In this document: in pieces, positions 1,222-55,654 of the stretch
How positions within the stretch are numbered: position 1 is the stretch's first letter
Layout: each line of letters starts with the position of its first letter
Origin: Promethearchaeota archaeon Loki_b31
GTDB lineage: Archaea > Asgardarchaeota > Lokiarchaeia > Sigyniarchaeales > SOKP01
Reading direction: 5' to 3'
Length of the DNA: 64,000 nt
Assembly (NCBI GenBank): GCA_005222975.1
Contig: NJBI01000009.1
Location: 20,449-84,448 of the forward strand
Notes under the pieces: model-generated
Told to the model about the DNA's origin: nothing
Database searches by the model: none
What the model saw: only the letters and a program-made list of their open reading frames with translations
Translations under genes and position numbers: made by a program

Positions 1222-3402
1222 TTAAAGACTCATACCTTCTTTTTCTTTTTTCGCGTGTAAATATATGTTTTTTAAGATAAAATATAGTTCTTCGGAGTTA
1301 TCAATCGGAATCGCTTGAAGATCGTTCTTCTGCCCCCAATTCATAACTTTTTGTTTAAGCAACCTTTCTTCTTCTCGAAATTCTTCATTAAAATCGACAA
1401 AATCGAAAATCGAAACTATTAAGTGGTATTTTTTGCTTAATAAAATAATTTTTTTTAAAAGCGCATCCTCTATGAATTGGTGAGGATCGATAACTTGGAT
1501 TATTACTCGATCAAGCAAATTTAAGTGAATTATCGATTTAGCTATTTCAAAAGGGATTTGGTCGCGTTGGAGCTTCTTTCTTACGCCAAATTTAACTGGA
1601 AACGACTGACTTATCTTGATCTCGGTAGCAATATGTTTTTTTTCTTCGTTAATTGTAGTTTTTTGAAAGTACCTTAGCAAATTAGCTTGTTTTTTGGTGC
1701 CTTTAATCTTTTTCATGTCTGCGAGGGGTACTTCTGCTATTAATCTCGCATCAATAATAGTTTCTACAGGAGATTGTGAATGATTATAAGACGTTTTTAA
1801 TTGCTTCCCGCTTTTAAGGTTAAGGTTCATCTTTTTTAGCTTGTTCAGAGCGATGTGCATGTAAATTTCGTCGTGTGTGTCCTTACAATAAAGGATAATT
1901 ACTTTTCCTTCTCGATGTCGCGCAGTCCTTCCTTTTCTCTGGATAAACCTAATTTCTGAGGCCACCACGTCGTAAAATATTACCAAATCGCACTCTGCTA
2001 TGTCGAGACCTTCTTCACCTACGTTAGTGCTTACTAAAACGTTGTATTGGCCTTGTTTGAATTGCTCTAGTATTTCGAGTTGTTTTTTCTGAGACAGTCC
2101 TTTGTCGTCTTTTGATTTGGTTGATTGTCCAACGAATCGAGCGGGTTGGATTAAATTTTTTCCGTTTAATTTAAGTTTGTTTGTTATGTTTTTTACCGAG
2201 TCCCGAAGCTTTACAAATACTAAAACCCTCGAGGGTGGGTTATTTTCAAACTCTTGGACCAACAATTTTTCTAACACGTAAAATTTTGGGTGAATCAAAC
2301 GTTCAGGATAGTAATCTTCGTTTTTTTTAAGCTCAATAAATATTTGGTTTATTCTATGATCTGAGGCTAGTATTTTTACCGCTTTCGAGCTATTTTTTTT
2401 ACGAGCGTTTTGCTTTATCTTAGTTAGATAGATTAACAACACATCCAAACCTTGTTGTTCGATTAGTTCGAGCATGTGAAAAAGAATTAGCCCTTGTGCA
2501 TTCACCGAAATAGCGCTATAAACCCCTGTTTTATCGCCATCTCCTTGAACTAACCTCACCAATTCGGCATTGAGCTTTAGCAAGTCCTTACGGATCACCT
2601 TAGTATATAACTTGTCAGCTTTAACGCTCAAGAAACCTAATTGCGAAAGATACTGCAACCTCTCTTCTAAAAGGTTTTGAACGGCGATGTAGGCTTCCTC
2701 CATTAATTCGGTTAGATTAACGCCGATTTTATAAACATCCATCGGTTTCAAATATGTTTTTACATCAACATCTTTTCTCGTGCGCGTGTGTATGTTTTCC
2801 AGAGGAACGTGTAGGTTTTTACATAGAACTCTGATTTTTTCTTTAGTCGCTCCAGGGCTAGCGGTCAACCCCAAAATAGTTCCGTCCGGGTTTTGATCTG
2901 TATATTCGTCCGCTATTAAAGTGTAAGCGTAATCGCCAGAAGCGTGATGAGCTTCGTCAAAAATTATTAAACACACTCTTTCTAAAGTGTATTTTCTATT
3001 AGCGAGGTCGTTTCTCAATGTCTGGGGCGTGTAAAAAATGATTTGATTTTCTCGAAAAAAATCTACTCTTTTTTCAGGAGGAATTTTACCAGTTAAAACA
3101 ACGAATTGTTCTTCTGGGATCGTCATTAAGGTTCTAAAAGAATCGTAGTGTTGGTTAATTAACGGTCGCGTAGGGGCTAATACTATAACTTTAGTTTTAG
3201 TGGGAAACTTTTCTAAGATTTTTGCGGCAACATAGACTCCGATTATAGTTTTTCCGAGTCCGGTTGGAAGCACCACCAGCGAATTTTTAGACGCGCACGC
3301 TTGAGCTATCTTTAGTTGGTATTCCCTATGCTCGATCTGTTTTTCTCGCAAGTATTTATTTTTCGAATTTTTATTACTGTTTCTTTCTTCTATTTCAATC
3401 AC
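1222..3402 (-). CDS. hef: Hef/FANCM-like SF2 DEAH helicase with degenerate C-terminal ERCC4-like region
   Basis: LPTGLGKT Walker A, FDEAHH, TASPG, EEGLDI and QRKGRTAR motifs typical of Hef/Mph1. Confidence 0.9.
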   Translation of the reverse strand: MIEIEERNSNKNSKNKYLREKQIEHREYQLKIAQACASKNSLVVLPTGLGKTIIGVYVAAKILEKFPTKTKVIVLAPTRPLINQHYDSFRTLMTIPEEQFVVLTGKIPPEKRVDFFRENQIIFYTPQTLRNDLANRKYTLERVCLIIFDEAHHASGDYAYTLIADEYTDQNPDGTILGLTASPGATKEKIRVLCKNLHVPLENIHTRTRKDVDVKTYLKPMDVYKIGVNLTELMEEAYIAVQNLLEERLQYLSQLGFLSVKADKLYTKVIRKDLLKLNAELVRLVQGDGDKTGVYSAISVNAQGLILFHMLELIEQQGLDVLLIYLTKIKQNARKKNSSKAVKILASDHRINQIFIELKKNEDYYPERLIHPKFYVLEKLLVQEFENNPPSRVLVFVKLRDSVKNITNKLKLNGKNLIQPARFVGQSTKSKDDKGLSQKKQLEILEQFKQGQYNVLVSTNVGEEGLDIAECDLVIFYDVVASEIRFIQRKGRTARHREGKVIILYCKDTHDEIYMHIALNKLKKMNLNLKSGKQLKTSYNHSQSPVETIIDARLIAEVPLADMKKIKGTKKQANLLRYFQKTTINEEKKHIATEIKISQSFPVKFGVRKKLQRDQIPFEIAKSIIHLNLLDRVIIQVIDPHQFIEDALLKKIILLSKKYHLIVSIFDFVDFNEEFREEERLLKQKVMNWGQKNDLQAIPIDNSEELYFILKNIYLHAKKEKEGMSL

Positions 3403-3418
3403 TATCCTCGAACTCCCT

Positions 3419-3994
3419 CTAAACGATTTTTACGAAGTATTCTCCTATTTGTAGTTTGGAAACCAATTTTTTGGTTCTCTCGTAAGACAAGATTAAGTTA
3501 CCCGCGTCTACCGCTAATTCTGAAGGGTACACGAGACCGTTACTTTTACTCTCGAAAAAGTACGGGTGAGCCTTCTTTAGCTCTTTTACCTTTCTCGCAA
3601 GCTCGGTACCGTTTCTTTTCACATCGAACCCTTTTCCGATTTTTACGCGTTGAAAAAAGTAGACGATGTCGCTTAACAATTTAACTTGGTCTCGATCAAT
3701 TTCTATTTCTTTTAGCTCGAGAACGCTCCCGTCTTTAACTTCAGATTTTGGCTTTAAAATTAAGTAAGTTTTGTCGTTTTTCCATTTTTTACAGAGAACA
3801 TAGCCTTCGAAAACACAATTAAATAACTTTTGGAAGCGAAAAATTACCTCTAAAACCGCGTCTAATTCGCTCGCAGATAGTTTGAGGTACTCAGCTAACT
3901 TGTCGAGACTAAATAGATTATTTTTTCGGACTTGGAACATCTCCAACGCTGATAGGATCTGATTTAACTGCTTAATTTTTACGCTCTGAGCCAT
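3419..3994 (-). CDS. hypothetical, possible HTH/winged-helix protein
   Basis: 191 aa; SLDKLAEYLKLSASEL resembles an HTH; co-oriented with hef. Confidence 0.65.
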   Translation of the reverse strand: MAQSVKIKQLNQILSALEMFQVRKNNLFSLDKLAEYLKLSASELDAVLEVIFRFQKLFNCVFEGYVLCKKWKNDKTYLILKPKSEVKDGSVLELKEIEIDRDQVKLLSDIVYFFQRVKIGKGFDVKRNGTELARKVKELKKAHPYFFESKSNGLVYPSELAVDAGNLILSYERTKKLVSKLQIGEYFVKIV

Positions 3995-4089
3995 TACTAC
4001 CTAAATTTATCGAGAGAATAAAAAGGAAAAATCTTAGACATATTAAGAAAAAAAAGAAAAACAAAATTTATTTAATATATAGTCAGATG

Positions 4090-44768: not shown

Positions 44769-45254
44769 CTATTTTTCTATGTAATCGGTTTTAGAAGCAA
44801 TGATATTTGTAATACTTCCATTGGGAGTTAAATCAGAGTATTCCACCATTACTTCCTCATTTGTATATTTTTCAATCATAGCTGCCATAACCATAGCCAT
44901 TGGACACACCCCTTTAGTACCTGCAACTGTATGAGCAGATCTTGCCATGAAACAATTATTCAAGGAAAAAACATACGAACCATCAGGTCTTTTCTTAAGA
45001 GAAGCGTTATCAACCAATAGTGAAGTTTTTAATAACTTTATAAACCTTTTTCCAAAATCTTCAATATTTTCTCCTTCTATTGGCTCAATACCCAATTTTT
45101 CAGTTGCTTCCATAGACTCTTTTATTGCGGGAAACATATAATCACGAAATCCAATTTTTCCTAAAGTTTCGTCAATGCCAGCTTGAAGAGTAAAAATCCC
45201 CACGTGAAATAAACCCGAGATAAATCCAAACTCCTTTGGCATCATTTTATCCAT
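44769..45254 (-). CDS. V4R/methanogen-output-domain-like protein
   Basis: NNCFMA..H....VCPMA motif; ~160 aa. Confidence 0.55.
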   Translation of the reverse strand: MDKMMPKEFGFISGLFHVGIFTLQAGIDETLGKIGFRDYMFPAIKESMEATEKLGIEPIEGENIEDFGKRFIKLLKTSLLVDNASLKKRPDGSYVFSLNNCFMARSAHTVAGTKGVCPMAMVMAAMIEKYTNEEVMVEYSDLTPNGSITNIIASKTDYIEK

Positions 45255-45303
45255 TAATTTACGCTTTAATCCTATTTTTTTTCACCTTTTATGAATTTCT
45301 TAA

Positions 45304-45621
45304 TTATACATTATTCCATACACTATTAAAGATTTCTTCAGTTTTTTCTATAATCATTTTATGTTCTATTACTTTTGTCATAGGAAATAAGACCATTATA
45401 TACTTATGTTCCCTTTTTGAGATTGAAATCAATTTTTTTTCTGAAGAAATTACAATGCTATTTACCTCACCAGCTTCAAATTCTTTTGAAAATTTTTTGA
45501 CTAAATTTATTAACATTCCTCCAATTGAGATTTGACGTGGCGAAGAAAATTTAGGAGGAACTTCGGAAAAAACAACTTTTTCTTGTATTTCATCAAATAC
45601 AATAATTCCTTCTACTTGCAC
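45304..45621 (-). CDS. roadblock/longin-like small domain protein
   Basis: clear paralog of the C-terminal half of the 46301-47116 protein. Confidence 0.65.
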   Translation of the reverse strand: MQVEGIIVFDEIQEKVVFSEVPPKFSSPRQISIGGMLINLVKKFSKEFEAGEVNSIVISSEKKLISISKREHKYIMVLFPMTKVIEHKMIIEKTEEIFNSVWNNV

Positions 45622-45724
45622 TTTATATTTTAATTCCTCCAGTTAATTTTAAATTAATTTAATAAATATTTATCGAAATATAATTTCTTTTCGTCAGCAT
45701 ATTTAAAATTTTGTTAAAAAAATC

Positions 45725-46282
45725 TTATAAATTACCTTTATATTTTTCATATAATACTCTAATTATTTTTTGGAACGCTTCGGTCACCCCTTGATTTGTT
45801 TTCGCAGAAGTTCGAAAAACTCCAATAAAGTTCTTCTCTTTAATGAAGTTTTGAATATATGTATCATCTAACTTATCTTCATTAATTAAATCTACTTTAT
45901 TTGCAAAAATAATGATAGGAATATCACCACAACTCTGTTTAATGTCCTTATACCAATCAACAATGTGATTGAGACTTTCTTTACCAAGATCATTTTCTTC
46001 GAGGGAATAAACAATAATTGCAGCTTTACTTTCTTCATAAAAATCAGAACGTAAAAATTCAAACTCCTTTTGACCAGCAATATCCCAAAAATATAATTTA
46101 CATTCGTCTCCATTTATTTTCTCATCATAAAAAGAAAATTGGGCGCCTATAGTAGAGATATAATCTTCCTCAAAAGTACCATGAGTATACTTTTTAATTA
46201 GAGATGTTTTTCCAACTCCCCCATCTCCAATAACAGTTATTTTAAATACAAATTTTAAATGTGTATCATTCATTAGTTTCAA
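45725..46282 (-). CDS. Rab/Ras-like small GTPase
   Basis: GDGGVGKT, STIG, WDIAGQ, NKVD, TSAK; no C-terminal Cys. Confidence 0.95.
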   Translation of the reverse strand: MKLMNDTHLKFVFKITVIGDGGVGKTSLIKKYTHGTFEEDYISTIGAQFSFYDEKINGDECKLYFWDIAGQKEFEFLRSDFYEESKAAIIVYSLEENDLGKESLNHIVDWYKDIKQSCGDIPIIIFANKVDLINEDKLDDTYIQNFIKEKNFIGVFRTSAKTNQGVTEAFQKIIRVLYEKYKGNL

Positions 46283-46300
46283 TCAAATCCATTCGAATTT

Positions 46301-47116
46301 TTATTTTAATAATTCAATCTTTAACATTTTCAAAATGTCATCTAAAATTTCTTCAGTTTTTTCCACAATTATATTAAGTTCAATATTTTTTGTTTTGGAA
46401 AATAAAACAATTATGTAAATATAATCTCTTTTCGAGACACAAATCCACCGATTCTCTGAAGAGATTAATATACAATGTACATCTCCTCCTTGATATTCAT
46501 ATGATAATTTTTTAGCAAAATTTATTAACATTCCACTCATCGAAATTTGTTTTTTAGATGAATATTCTTCTGGAACTTTAGCAAAAAGAATTTTTTCTTG
46601 GTTTTCATCAAATAGAATTATTCCTTCGGATTGCACCTTATAACCAAATTCTTCTAATAAGCCTTCAATAAGCGGTTGTTCCATGAACTGTAATATGTAA
46701 TTGTTAAAATCTGAGAAGATGGTTATATTTCCATTACGAATTGGGAGGTGTTCTTGATATACTTCTAAAAATTTAGTTGATATTTTGTTTAGGATGTAAA
46801 TAATTACTTGATTTGGTAGATCGTCATAGCATTGTATACAAAAAGTAATTTTCTCGAAGTTATTATAAAATAATTTATGACCACTCATTATTAAGGATTT
46901 AACTATCGTACCTGGAATTAATTTCTCACCAAACTTCTTAATAGCTGTGAAAAATCCAGACACTATATTTTCATCCAAATTTTCAGGTTTTATACCACAG
47001 CTTGTCAAACAAACCCCTGCGTTATCATAAATATAAATTGATTCAACATAATTTTCTATTGCTTTTTTTTCCTCTAATAACTCGCCCTTGTCCGTACTCA
47101 TATTTCTATCACCCAT
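46301..47116 (-). CDS. tandem longin/roadblock-like domain protein
   Basis: IYIYDNAGVCL...SGFFTAIKKF...F..Y...F.DF longin-like pattern plus a second similar domain. Confidence 0.7.
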   Translation of the reverse strand: MGDRNMSTDKGELLEEKKAIENYVESIYIYDNAGVCLTSCGIKPENLDENIVSGFFTAIKKFGEKLIPGTIVKSLIMSGHKLFYNNFEKITFCIQCYDDLPNQVIIYILNKISTKFLEVYQEHLPIRNGNITIFSDFNNYILQFMEQPLIEGLLEEFGYKVQSEGIILFDENQEKILFAKVPEEYSSKKQISMSGMLINFAKKLSYEYQGGDVHCILISSENRWICVSKRDYIYIIVLFSKTKNIELNIIVEKTEEILDDILKMLKIELLK

Positions 47117-47120
47117 TTCT

Positions 47121-47363
47121 CTATTTTATTTTTTTATTTAAATTATCAATATGAGATTTTAATTTAGAATTTTCAGCTTGGCATTGGTTTAATTGTTCTT
47201 GTAATTTTTGGTTCTGTATAACAGTTTTATTCGCGTTTAGCAAGGTTTGATATAATTGATTCTTAGCCTTCTTTAAATCCTTTTCCAAAGTCTTTACATA
47301 CTGATCTTTATCAGATACATATGGCCATTCCTCTGCCATTGAATTTCCCTTCTGAATTTTCAT
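47121..47363 (-). CDS. small coiled-coil protein
   Basis: heptad-rich 80 aa ORF; likely start at MAEEW. Confidence 0.55.
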   Translation of the reverse strand: MKIQKGNSMAEEWPYVSDKDQYVKTLEKDLKKAKNQLYQTLLNANKTVIQNQKLQEQLNQCQAENSKLKSHIDNLNKKIK

Positions 47364-48406: not shown

Positions 48407-49754
48407 ATGAAAAAAGTAGCTATTATTGGAGTTGGAATTACTCCTTTTAAAGCAAGATATATGGATAAAACGCATTTCGAATTAGCGTATGACGCGACCA
48501 AGCTCGCTTTGGAAGACGCAAATAAAAATGGGGCTGAAATAACTCATAAAGATTTAGAATCAACGGTTTATGGAATATATAATGAACTTTTTGAACGCCA
48601 ATTCATGCCCGACATCTTTATAAACTCGTACATCGGAATGAACAACAAACCAGGAACTCGAATCGCGTCTGGGGGCGCAACTGGGGGGTATACTGTACGG
48701 ATGGCTTACTCTGAAGTTGCTTCAGGGCTTTCGGATCTGTGCCTCTGCTTAGGCGTAGAAAAGTGTAATGACTGTTACGACGAAAAAACGGGCACGACAA
48801 CACCAGAGGTTCTAAATGCAATCGCTTATTCTGCCGATATGACTTACGAAAAAATGTTGTAATATTCTACACATCTCGTAAATATCCTATGGGCATGATG
48901 GCGGCCAGCTCTTATGTAAGCATGGTTAATGCGCACTTTGAAGAATTCGGAAATCCCACCGAGGATCAAATGGCTTAACACTATAATATTTAGTTAAGTG
49001 GGCTAATGTCTCGGTTAAGAATCATGGAAACGCTTTGTTGAATCCAATTGCACAATCACCTATGAAGCTATCTCTTGATGACATCCTCTTCTCAAGGATA
49101 ATATGCTATCCTTTCAAGATGCTTGATTGCTGCCTTTATTCCGAAGCTTCGGCAGCTTTAATATTAGCAAGCGAAGAAAAGGTAAAGGAATTAAAGATTG
49201 AGAATCCAATTTGGATAACTGGTGTAGGTGCTGCGAATACAGATTGTTTTATCGGTAATCGGGAAGAAATAGGGCGGTTATATTCAAATGTTTACGCAGC
49301 AAAGGCAGCTTACAAGATGGCGGGATTGGACTATAATAAGATCAAACAACAAATCGATTTGGCAGAGCTTCACGATGCCTTCTCTGGACATTACTTGTCA
49401 TAAAGACAATTTGCCAGTCAAGAAGTCATCTCCTATGAAGAACTCGGTTTTGTATCTTTTGGAGAAGGAGGTCCATGGATTGAAAAAACATTTGAAAAAC
49501 CTGGAGAAGGCCCTTGGTTAGAGGGAGAACTCCCGTGTTGTCCTTCAGGTGGCTTGATAGGTTGTGGCCATGCTGTTGGTGCGACGGGAATTATGAGCAC
49601 TGGAGAGGCTACCCTTCAATTAAGAGGGGAGGCAGGTAAACATCAAGTACCAATTGCTAAAGGGAGAGCTATATCTCATTCTATTGGAGGTCCTGGTGCC
49701 GCCTATGCTGCGGTAATCGTAATGACAAACGAGGAGGGGTTGAAAAAACCATGA
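48407..49754 (+). CDS. SCP2-type thiolase-family protein encoded in 4 exons (48407-48850, 48883-48977, 49007-49389, 49420-49754); 418 aa after splicing
   Basis: KKVAIIGVG, GVEK, VSVKNH..ALLNP, ELHDAF, EELGF, SGGL..GH.VGATG; removing three BHB inserts (91 nt) gives one 1257-nt ORF. Confidence 0.88.
48851..48882 (+). other. putative BHB mRNA intron 1 of thiolase (32 nt)
   Basis: central helix UACG/CGUA, bulges AAA and AAU, inner stem AUGU/ACAU. Confidence 0.8.
48978..49006 (+). other. putative BHB mRNA intron 2 of thiolase (29 nt)
   Basis: central helix GGCU/GGCU (2 GU pairs), bulges UAA and AAU, inner stem CACU/AGUG. Confidence 0.75.
49390..49419 (+). other. putative BHB mRNA intron 3 of thiolase (30 nt, in-frame stop)
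   Basis: central helix CUGG/CCAG, bulges ACA and UCA, exon stem CUUCU/AGAAG, inner stem UUGUC/GACAA. Confidence 0.88.
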
Positions 49755-50251
49755 GCGAAGAATTTCGATCACATGAAATCAGGGATAAAATTCTAATAGA
49801 ATATAAGTATACTATGGGCGGGCAATCAAAATTCTTCATAGAATTAATGAATAATAAAAAGATATTAGGAACAAAATGTAAGAAGTGTGGTAAAGTATGG
49901 ATGCCTCCAAGAATTAACTGCTCAGAATGCTACGAAGATACCGATTGGATTGAGCTCCCCCACGCAGGTACGATTCAAATTAGTACGATAGTGTGGTATG
50001 GGGCTGCTGAGTTTATTCAAAATGTTCCCTACGGTTGTGCCTTTATTAAATTAGATGAAGCAGATACAGCATTGTTTCAAGGTGTATTTTCAGAAAATTT
50101 AGTACCTTCAAAAATTAAGAAAGGACAACGAGTTAAAGCAGTGTTTAAAAGAAGGGAGGATCGAGAAGGAAGAATGACAGATTTCTTCTTTGTTCCCGAA
50201 GATGAGTGGGAAAGATGGATTAATAAACCAGAATTTGAAGGTGGTGAGTAA
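49751..50251 (+). CDS. DUF35 Zn-ribbon/OB-fold protein (thiolase partner)
   Basis: GTKCKKCG...PPR..CSEC, then OB fold; overlaps the thiolase stop (ATGA). Confidence 0.9.
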   Translation: MSEEFRSHEIRDKILIEYKYTMGGQSKFFIELMNNKKILGTKCKKCGKVWMPPRINCSECYEDTDWIELPHAGTIQISTIVWYGAAEFIQNVPYGCAFIKLDEADTALFQGVFSENLVPSKIKKGQRVKAVFKRREDREGRMTDFFFVPEDEWERWINKPEFEGGE

Positions 50252-50253
50252 AA

Positions 50254-50625
50254 TTGGGTATTGCAAGTGAAAGTTTAAGTAAAATTGTTGAAAATATGAG
50301 CGGGAACGCAAAAGTTGAAGCTGTTTTTGTAACTAATATTGGTGGTAAAGAAGTTGATTGGGATATGATTTTCCAATTTAACTTGGATAACGAGGACTCT
50401 TTTTATCTTAAAGTAAAGGGAAGAAAGGCTGAACTGATTAATGGAACCGCTTCAGATCCTAACATAATTATGACGGGAGATAATAACGCAATTGTAAAAA
50501 TCTGCAATGGTAAGGGGGATTTCACTCATGCGATTAGTAGAGAAGAAATAAAAGTTACAAAAGGAAAAATCATTGATGTAATACGCCTAACTCGAGCAAT
50601 AACCCTTGTTTTGAAAACTAAATAA
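50254..50625 (+). CDS. SCP2 sterol/lipid-binding domain protein
   Basis: FQFNLD...FYLKV...G....PNII...IKV.KG pattern; operonic with thiolase and DUF35. Confidence 0.75.
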   Translation: MGIASESLSKIVENMSGNAKVEAVFVTNIGGKEVDWDMIFQFNLDNEDSFYLKVKGRKAELINGTASDPNIIMTGDNNAIVKICNGKGDFTHAISREEIKVTKGKIIDVIRLTRAITLVLKTK

Positions 50626-54605: not shown

Positions 54606-55654
54606 ATGAAAATTGTAGATTTACGATCTGATACGGTTACCAAATCATCTCCTGAAATGTGGGAATATGTGAAGTCAATGGGTAATTCTGACCTAGGAGA
54701 TGATGTGATGGGGGAATATCCAACTGTGAATGAATTAGAGGAAAAAGCTGCTAAATTTATCGGAAAAGAAGCTGCACTTTTTATAACTTCAGGGACGCAG
54801 GGTAATTTAGTCTCACTTCTTTCACAAACTAAACCTGGAGTCGAAATTCTTTTAGAAGAACTAAGTCATATTTTTTTAAATGAAGTAGGGAGCGCGGTAC
54901 GAATAGGAGGTTTAATGATTAGGACATATCCTTTAGAGAGAGGGGTTCCATCATTTGAATATCTTCAATCTTTAATTCGAGATAAAGAAGAAATACATGA
55001 GCCACCGTCCACGCTATTATGTACCGAGAACACTCATAATTACCATGGAGGTGCAATAGTTGAACTTGATGCTTTAAAGAAAATGAGGGATTTTACTTTT
55101 AAAAATGAATTAAAATTTCATTTAGATGGAGAAAGAATTTTTAAAGCAGCAGTCGGATTGAATGTGCATGTAACTGAAATTACTAAACTTGCCGATAGTG
55201 TAATGTTTTATCTGTCTAAAGGGCTCTCGTGTCCTGTAGGATCAATTGTAGCTGGCTCTAAAGAATTTATTTCGAGAACTAGAAGATTTCGAAAAATGTT
55301 GGTGGAGGAATGCGTCAGGCGGGAATTATAGCTGCTTTTGGCCTTCTTGCGTTAGAACCTAAATGGATAAAAAGACTTGATGAGGATCATAAAAATGCTA
55401 AAAAACTTGCTCAAGGATTAAAAAGCTTCAACTTACCAATAAAAGTACATCCAACTGATACTAATATTGTAATAATTGAAATGTCGGAAAAAGTAAGAAT
55501 TATTAAGATTATTACAACACTCAATAAAGCTGGGATATTAGCTTTTAATATCAGTAAAGAAAAGATTAGGTTTGTTACTCATTATGGAATCACCGAAGAC
55601 GATATTAACTACAGTACAGAACAGATAGGGATCGTATTAAAAAAATTTCTATAA
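54606..55654 (+). pseudogene. ltaE: low-specificity L-threonine aldolase, frameshifted near 55301
   Basis: DLRSDTVT, SGTQGN, ENTHN, SKGL; RKMLGGGMRQAG is broken by a 1-nt deletion; several consensus residues also changed. Confidence 0.75.

Follow-up and report, generated by a model that had tools for sequence, protein, structure and literature searches.

Archaeal protein-coding genes are regarded as intron-free except for cbf5, and within the literature that we searched this is indeed the only archaeal gene with a confirmed bulge-helix-bulge (BHB) intron inside its coding sequence. Splicing has been shown for the BHB intron of the crenarchaeal cbf5 pre-mRNA (Watanabe 2002; Yokobori 2009, PMC2738675), predictions of putative introns already existed for other protein genes (PMC2738675), and a paper from 2020 counts no mRNA cases beyond cbf5 and one intron in the 5' untranslated region (5'-UTR) of a Haloferax gene (PMC7714728). 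For the coding sequences of Asgard archaea, BHB introns are not reported in the literature searched, which leaves out most subscription journals. Here we describe a 30-nucleotide (nt) insert, intron 3, in a thiolase-fold gene of Promethearchaeota archaeon Loki_b31 (GCA_005222975.1, contig NJBI01000009.1). The gene lies in a stretch of 64,000 nt that we refer to as the window and whose positions serve as coordinates. On the basis of the observed anatomy, presence and absence among orthologs, register, purifying selection, frozen pairing, genome-wide recurrence and enzyme genes, we consider it highly probable that the insert (49390-49419) is a BHB intron that is spliced from the mRNA by the tRNA-splicing endonuclease EndA and whose exons are joined by RtcB.

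Like the cbf5 intron, intron 3 is short, is located in coding sequence at a conserved motif, splits a codon and has a BHB at its junction. The likeness extends to the (predicted) cut between bulge bases 2 and 3, the two-subunit EndA and the patchy presence among relatives. Nevertheless, the cbf5 case concerns one gene, one site and one ancient gain in the Desulfurococcales/Sulfolobales, whereas the present case concerns an Asgard archaeon, a metabolic gene, three introns per message, seven sites among close relatives and at least 10 genes, with a splicing that is predicted and an intron presence that varies between the species of one genus. The host gene is not cbf5 but encodes a thiolase fold and the site is not a catalytic Asp codon, so that the two introns are analogous and not homologous.

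Anatomy and predicted splicing of intron 3

The elements of the gene and of intron 3 are as follows (pair probabilities are from the predicted fold, and carriers are alleles with the insert):

48407..49754, plus strand: thiolase-fold gene (SCP2-thiolase/Ltp2-like, without the nucleophilic Cys), four exons
48407-48850, 48883-48977, 49007-49389 and 49420-49754, plus strand: exons of this gene
49390..49419, plus strand: intron 3, 30 nt, in frame, with TAA at 49401-03; splits a Gln codon as C/AA
49374..49383, plus strand: 5' arm of the exon-exon stem, GAUGcCUUCU; synonymous sites frozen in carriers
49384..49387, plus strand: 5' strand of the BHB central helix, CUGG (exon); pair probability 0.87
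49388..49390, plus strand: 5' bulge ACA, predicted cut after 49389; relaxed site with a U.G closing pair
49395..49409, plus strand: intron hairpin of 5 bp with a 5-nt loop (UUGUC 49395-99, AUAAA, GACAA 49405-09)
49414..49417, plus strand: 3' strand of the BHB central helix, CCAG (intron)
49418..49420, plus strand: 3' bulge UCA, predicted cut after 49419; UUA in allele L007/L114
49421..49430, plus strand: 3' arm of the exon-exon stem, AGAAGuCAUC; last base C or U, each of which pairs with G49374

When all three inserts are taken out at their BHB sites, 1257 nt remain that encode 418 amino acids and a stop without any internal stop, which compares with about 420 amino acids (81-94% identity) for the intact orthologs. 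For intron 3, cuts after 49389 and 49419 yield GGA C/AA, i.e. ...HDAFSGQEVISYEE, and this removal between bulge positions 2 and 3, as is proper to a BHB intron, leads to HDAFSGQEVISYE in agreement with the intact orthologs. There are two opposite 3-nt bulges, the 3' one of which is closed by the exon-exon stem (9 of 10 pairs), and this stem may be extended by an extra helix (49368-72/49436-40). The central helix CUGG/CCAG consists of four Watson-Crick pairs and is paired in all 11 distinct alleles, with one change of G-C to G-U. With four central pairs and one outer helix, intron 3 counts as canonical by the rule used in the preprint on Asgard tRNA introns (bioRxiv 10.64898/2026.10.13.758758).

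The original prediction had been made from the sequence alone, and the stem, the helix, both bulges, the hairpin and the TAA at 49401 that it listed were recovered base for base. Its qualification as a near-textbook BHB holds for the 3' site, which is canonical. The 5' site is somewhat relaxed and its bulge weaker than claimed, because it is closed by a U.G pair alone, followed by U.U and C.U mismatches, and is disfavoured by the energy model. RNA folding with ViennaRNA, one of the checks that had been proposed, returned the central helix (and disfavoured the textbook 5' bulge), and the fold is stronger than that of shuffled sequences (z = -2.64). The BHB-constrained energy is the second-lowest among 8,655 loose candidates genome-wide that rescue an open reading frame (ORF). 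A shuffled insert forms a canonical BHB at the same exact register in 2% of the trials, and an insert relocated along the gene does so at 2% of the sites, or at 0.09% when a strong exon stem is included. A stem of at least 9 of 10 pairs around a 7-nt loop is unique to the intron-3 site among the 1,164 sites of the spliced gene.

By analogy with the established chemistry of archaeal BHB introns, from which we infer the cuts, the ligation and the enzymes, the pre-mRNA would fold into the exon-exon stem, the CUGG/CCAG helix and the intron hairpin, a two-subunit EndA would cut after C49389 and C49419, and RtcB would ligate the exons and thereby rebuild the codon for Gln. The other two introns of the same gene (1 and 2, see below) would be excised likewise, which amounts to three splicing events per message. 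The host encodes a full-length RtcB and two EndA paralogs, one of which has the Tyr/His/Lys triad and a loop Lys like that of the crenarchaeal specificity loop (CSL), to which it aligns, whereas the other lacks the His. Judged at the sequence level, the host has a ligase and an EndA that would be capable of cutting beyond the anticodon loops of tRNAs. The Asgard EndA has been described as a two-subunit, loop-bearing enzyme of the broad-specificity type that accepts relaxed motifs (PMC5829648), a tolerance that fits the relaxed 5' site.

Orthologs, selection and the history of the insert

An unbiased protein search in 40 relatives yielded 18 close orthologs whose sequence extends over the site (19 including the host allele), and the insert is exactly absent from 14 of these 19 and present in five. 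Scans with DNA patterns added 23 more loci, and each of the 28 matches with an insert carries a stop or a frameshift in it. Orthologs with a tolerated insertion of 10 amino acids, which the original prediction had put forward as evidence for readthrough, were looked for, and a translatable insert was present in no ortholog. These data bear on the possibility that the ribosome passes the insert unspliced, either by reading through the TAA (adding 10 residues) or by hopping over the hairpin. In favour of such a bypass, the length of intron 3 is a multiple of 3 and the stop codon lies within a hairpin loop, a placement that resembles that of hopping signals such as the one of T4 gene 60. It is nevertheless very improbable, for there are two stops in the insert of L007/L114 and three in that of L122/L130, introns 1 and 2, like the 29-nt inserts found at this site, are frameshifting, the take-off and landing codons that hopping would use are unmatched (GGA vs AGT), and the extra residues that follow from readthrough occur at this site in no ortholog. 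The allele L007/L114, with UUA in its 3' bulge, also informs on the register: registers further 5' result in TAA, and only the BHB cut, or a cut one base further 3', leads to the invariant Gln.

Once spliced, the full-length interrupted alleles contain no other stop or frameshift. The ratio of nonsynonymous to synonymous divergence (dN/dS) is 0.064 between the host allele and L128, both of which have three introns (dS 0.41), and 0.04-0.08 for other pairs of carriers, as compared to 0.043-0.056 for intact pairs; among carriers with a dS of 0.2-1.6 it lies at 0.04-0.09. The 25 exon bases that flank the junction form a single haplotype in 23 of 23 carrier rows and 15 different ones in the 15 non-carriers. 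The frozen synonymous positions are the paired ones, except for the first bulge base, and those stem changes that do occur keep G.U pairs. The gene might still be viewed as a pseudogene with dead inserts that fold by chance: the host genome has several further thiolase-fold paralogs, which would make its loss affordable, the L120 contig has an intact copy beside an interrupted one, and loose BHB motifs are as common (8,655) as their mirror images (8,656). Given the low dN/dS among carriers over the whole range of dS, the lack of any other lesion, the narrow length range and exact register of the inserts, and the like inserts in the genes for aIF2-gamma, proteasome alpha and histones, we consider this highly improbable.

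An artefact of assembly or sequencing deserves mention as the host assembly (92% complete, so that 'only copy' below means only copy found) is fragmented into 99 contigs. However, the same insert is found with allelic variation in many independent assemblies, which refute this explanation, and contigs of run X7 (probably DNA) cross the intron-3 site ungapped, that is without a 30-nt gap; its chance is negligible. A 32-nt skip at intron 1 in the same run was rejected as evidence of splicing.

Several observations weigh against the splicing of intron 3. In the three RNA runs that were examined (X2, X3 and X5), which consist of contigs with small shares, no spliced transcript was seen and the junction is crossed by no contig of an intron-bearing allele; X5 stops short of the junction, and X3 yielded no match. 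The sole RNA contig over the site, from X2, reads TTT TCA GGG CAA, i.e. the allele of an intronless relative, and was rejected as a spliced form since its codons differ from the TTC TCT GGA CAA of the host. At the level of the fold, ViennaRNA favours pairing of C49389/A49390 with G49413/U49412, the textbook fold being about 4 kcal/mol costlier, and in a 200-nt context the U49391-G49413 pair has a probability of about 0 (the central helix 0.87). With respect to conservation, the 23 carrier rows include near-identical genomes, come mostly from the DNA pattern search and are not independent, and the frozen exon tract could result from recent co-transfer as well as from selection. Finally, covariation inside intron 3 is weak, amounting to one compensatory pair (84 of 500 shuffles score as high). 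The competing pairing of the 5' bulge is unconserved among relatives, and the profile of synonymous identity contains no clean co-transferred tract beyond the paired stem.

The distribution of the 30-nt intron over the exon tree (from which 60 nt to the left and to the right of the site were masked) requires seven changes, at least four of which are forced by strong branches, and the carriers as one clade are rejected (approximately unbiased test, p = 0.0002). Sideways movement or repeated loss must therefore have occurred. Intron 3 differs at 0-3 of its 30 bases (outside L122/L130), with an unchanged 5-nt loop, between alleles with a dS of up to 1.6, and L126 looks mosaic across the site, which suggests sideways spread of the intron with a short exon tract. 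Repeated exact loss combined with strong constraint would also account for the pattern and stands beside it as an alternative. A donor copy of intron 3 was not found in the host genome (no match above 14 nt), nor thereby the close genomic copy that characterizes tRNA-intron transposition of the Thermoproteales type; the test is weak, as ARAGORN recovered only 14 tRNA genes.

Other inserts in the gene and the genome

Introns 1 and 2 and the further inserts of the host genome are listed below:

48851..48882, plus strand: intron 1, 32 nt, frameshifting; helix UACG 48845-48 / CGUA 48877-80; removal restores ...ADMTYEYPMG
48978..49006, plus strand: intron 2, 29 nt, frameshifting; helix GGCU 48972-75 / GGCU 49001-04 (two G.U); removal restores ...DQMAYVSVKN
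G000:C32:7244, minus strand: BHB insert of 29 nt in the aIF2-gamma gene (locus L137); splits the P-loop GHVDHGK/T
G000:C67:32783, minus strand: insert of 32 nt in the proteasome alpha gene (locus L138); G.A mismatch in the central helix
G000:C25:1660 (minus), C83:34330 (minus), C46:25888 (plus), C58:47823 (plus), C98:16601 (plus), C98:1519 (minus) and C99:11833 (minus): further BHB inserts of 29-32 nt; the seven genes are two histones, acr3, a second thiolase-fold gene, an ABC ATPase, an Fe-S protein and an lsrF-like aldolase, several of the inserts lying inside conserved motifs

By comparing the host genome to a 1.57-Mb sample of the relative G018 (720 ortholog pairs) we found seven frame-breaking inserts, all of 29-32 nt and all restoring conserved residues at the BHB register, namely three in the thiolase-fold gene and one each in the second thiolase-fold gene, a histone gene, acr3 and the proteasome alpha gene. 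Six of these seven are canonical, as compared to 2-7% per shuffled insert (P ~1e-8), and four harmless in-frame inserts restore nothing at that register. The G018 sample itself has no frame-breaking insert, and the intron load thus differs strongly within the genus. A loose de novo scan for BHB motifs is by itself noise (the candidates equal the mirror control in number) and energy cut-offs alone do not separate the two. Combined with support from homology, it left 12 loci for the BHB geometry as against zero for the mirror image, adding a second histone, the ABC ATPase (at Walker B), the Fe-S protein (at CxxCxxC), the lsrF-like aldolase and aIF2-gamma. The candidate at C96:74881 was dropped for its poor fold and weak support; with this case removed and the proteasome gene added, the total comes to at least 12 introns in 10 genes. 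Scaled from the sample, this suggests a few dozen BHB introns per genome.

The aIF2-gamma gene is the only copy found and is essential, and can therefore not be a pseudogene, with the reservation that the assembly is 92% complete. G004 (L142) has the homologous intron with a compensatory change of C-G to U-A in the hairpin, and the intron is absent from four other relatives. For proteasome alpha there is a second paralog, 45% identical, on C94. Taken together, selection, register and the genome-wide evidence point towards the removal of intron 3. In principle, the comparative data reveal just the need for precise removal, which could be the work of another nuclease or occur at the DNA level, and the relaxed 5' site might be taken to point in that direction. 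Against this stands that unrelated inserts agree in a cut register at exactly the second base of every 3-nt bulge, that G.U pairs are tolerated as in RNA, that mirror geometry is without a supported case and that the insert has no second genomic copy, so that removal other than by EndA and RtcB on RNA has a slim chance at best.

Intron 1 is shared with L128, and intron 2 with L007, L124, L128 and L135. Unrelated 29-nt inserts occupy the intron-3 site in L121, L129 and L133, and in the relatives four more sites of the gene are occupied by BHB-like inserts (28-34 nt), which makes seven sites overall. The lineage of L007 (G004), L124 and L135 has four introns in the thiolase-fold gene and shares introns 2 and 3 as well as the aIF2-gamma intron with the host, although the exons are distant (dS ~1.6). 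By eye, the 29-nt inserts in L121 (7430-7493), L129 and L133 look like a tandem duplication of the exon hairpin that has decayed, as their beginning is similar to the downstream exon and their end to the upstream exon, and as they contain a self-pairing CUGG; intron 2 (GGCU/GGCU) partly fits the same route. If a hairpin whose 7-nt loop begins with a self-complementary 4-mer were duplicated, a BHB would arise immediately, which is a possible route of intron birth. L120 has two tandem thiolase-DUF35-SCP2 operons (476-1741 and 2793-4080; dS 0.44), of which one is free of introns and the other has intron 3; its record bears the title Deferrimicrobium, which is probably due to misbinning.

In the window, the gene is followed by two intact genes on the same strand:

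49751..50251, plus strand: DUF35 / ChsH2-type partner gene with a Zn-ribbon and OB-fold; overlaps the thiolase-fold stop
50296..50625, plus strand: SCP2-domain gene, third of the operon

The name thiolase in the original prediction is correct for the fold and for the fold only. In the intact ortholog of L120, aligned to the Cys of 7yvy/6esq, the position of the nucleophilic Cys is a Gly (ASGGATGG vs AACASGG), and ASGGATGG is present in the gene of the window as well, so that the encoded protein lacks the residue that defines a canonical thiolase. It resembles the Ltp2-ChsH2(DUF35) aldolase and the SCP2-thiolases (PDB 6ok1, 6hsj, 7yvy) in its thiolase fold, its HD and GH motifs and its DUF35 neighbour, and differs from thiolases in the predicted replacement of the nucleophile by Gly. 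The three genes (48407-50625) thus probably encode an Ltp2/ChsH2-like aldolase module. Elsewhere in the window, a gene at 54606-55653, by its motif presumably threonine-aldolase-like, has what looks like a frameshift of one base near 55300, where RKML is followed by GGMRQAG in a different frame; there is no BHB insert, and the shift is an ordinary lesion or a sequencing error. At 44769-47363 (minus strand) a Rab-like small GTPase (45725-46282) clusters, by eye, with roadblock/longin-like and V4R-like neighbours, as is typical for Loki-type archaea.

Implications and comparison with known introns

At a more general level, the balance tips modestly towards the view that a genuine system of mRNA introns exists in some Loki-type Asgard archaea and is run by the tRNA-splicing machinery, with a few dozen introns of about 30 nt per genome, several per message and some in essential genes, that spread between species by recombination with the exon tract of the splice site. 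If this is true, the closest prokaryotic relatives of eukaryotes allow one to observe how protein genes gain and lose introns, and the presence and absence among species of one genus renders both gain and loss directly testable. If the introns are spliced, Asgard multi-intron mRNAs, including that of an essential translation factor, would be processed without a spliceosome, which bears on the tolerance of intron-containing messages before eukaryotes, and such Asgard genes would at present be misannotated as pseudogenes or missed.

In eukaryotes, HAC1/XBP1 also has a short mRNA intron that is cut out by a protein endonuclease and whose exons are sealed by a tRNA ligase (RtcB in animals). Its cuts are made by IRE1 at two stem-loops, and not by the tRNA endonuclease at a BHB, and constitute a regulated switch, so that the likeness to intron 3 would be one of analogy only. 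The non-canonical tRNA introns of Asgard archaea (bioRxiv 10.64898/2026.10.13.758758) and those of the Thermoproteales are closer, in that they are likewise short BHB introns with repeated gains and reused positions, no general donor found and a two-subunit EndA. The preprint deals with tRNA genes only ('mRNA' and 'cbf5' are unmentioned) and its intron-rich classes are the Jordiarchaeia and Atabeyarchaeia. Finally, the 5'-UTR BHB intron of Haloferax volcanii HVO_1309 (PMC7714728) is located in an untranslated leader and leaves the reading frame unbroken, unlike intron 3; what the two would have in common, as far as their sequences indicate, is that an mRNA serves as the substrate of the tRNA-splicing endonuclease.
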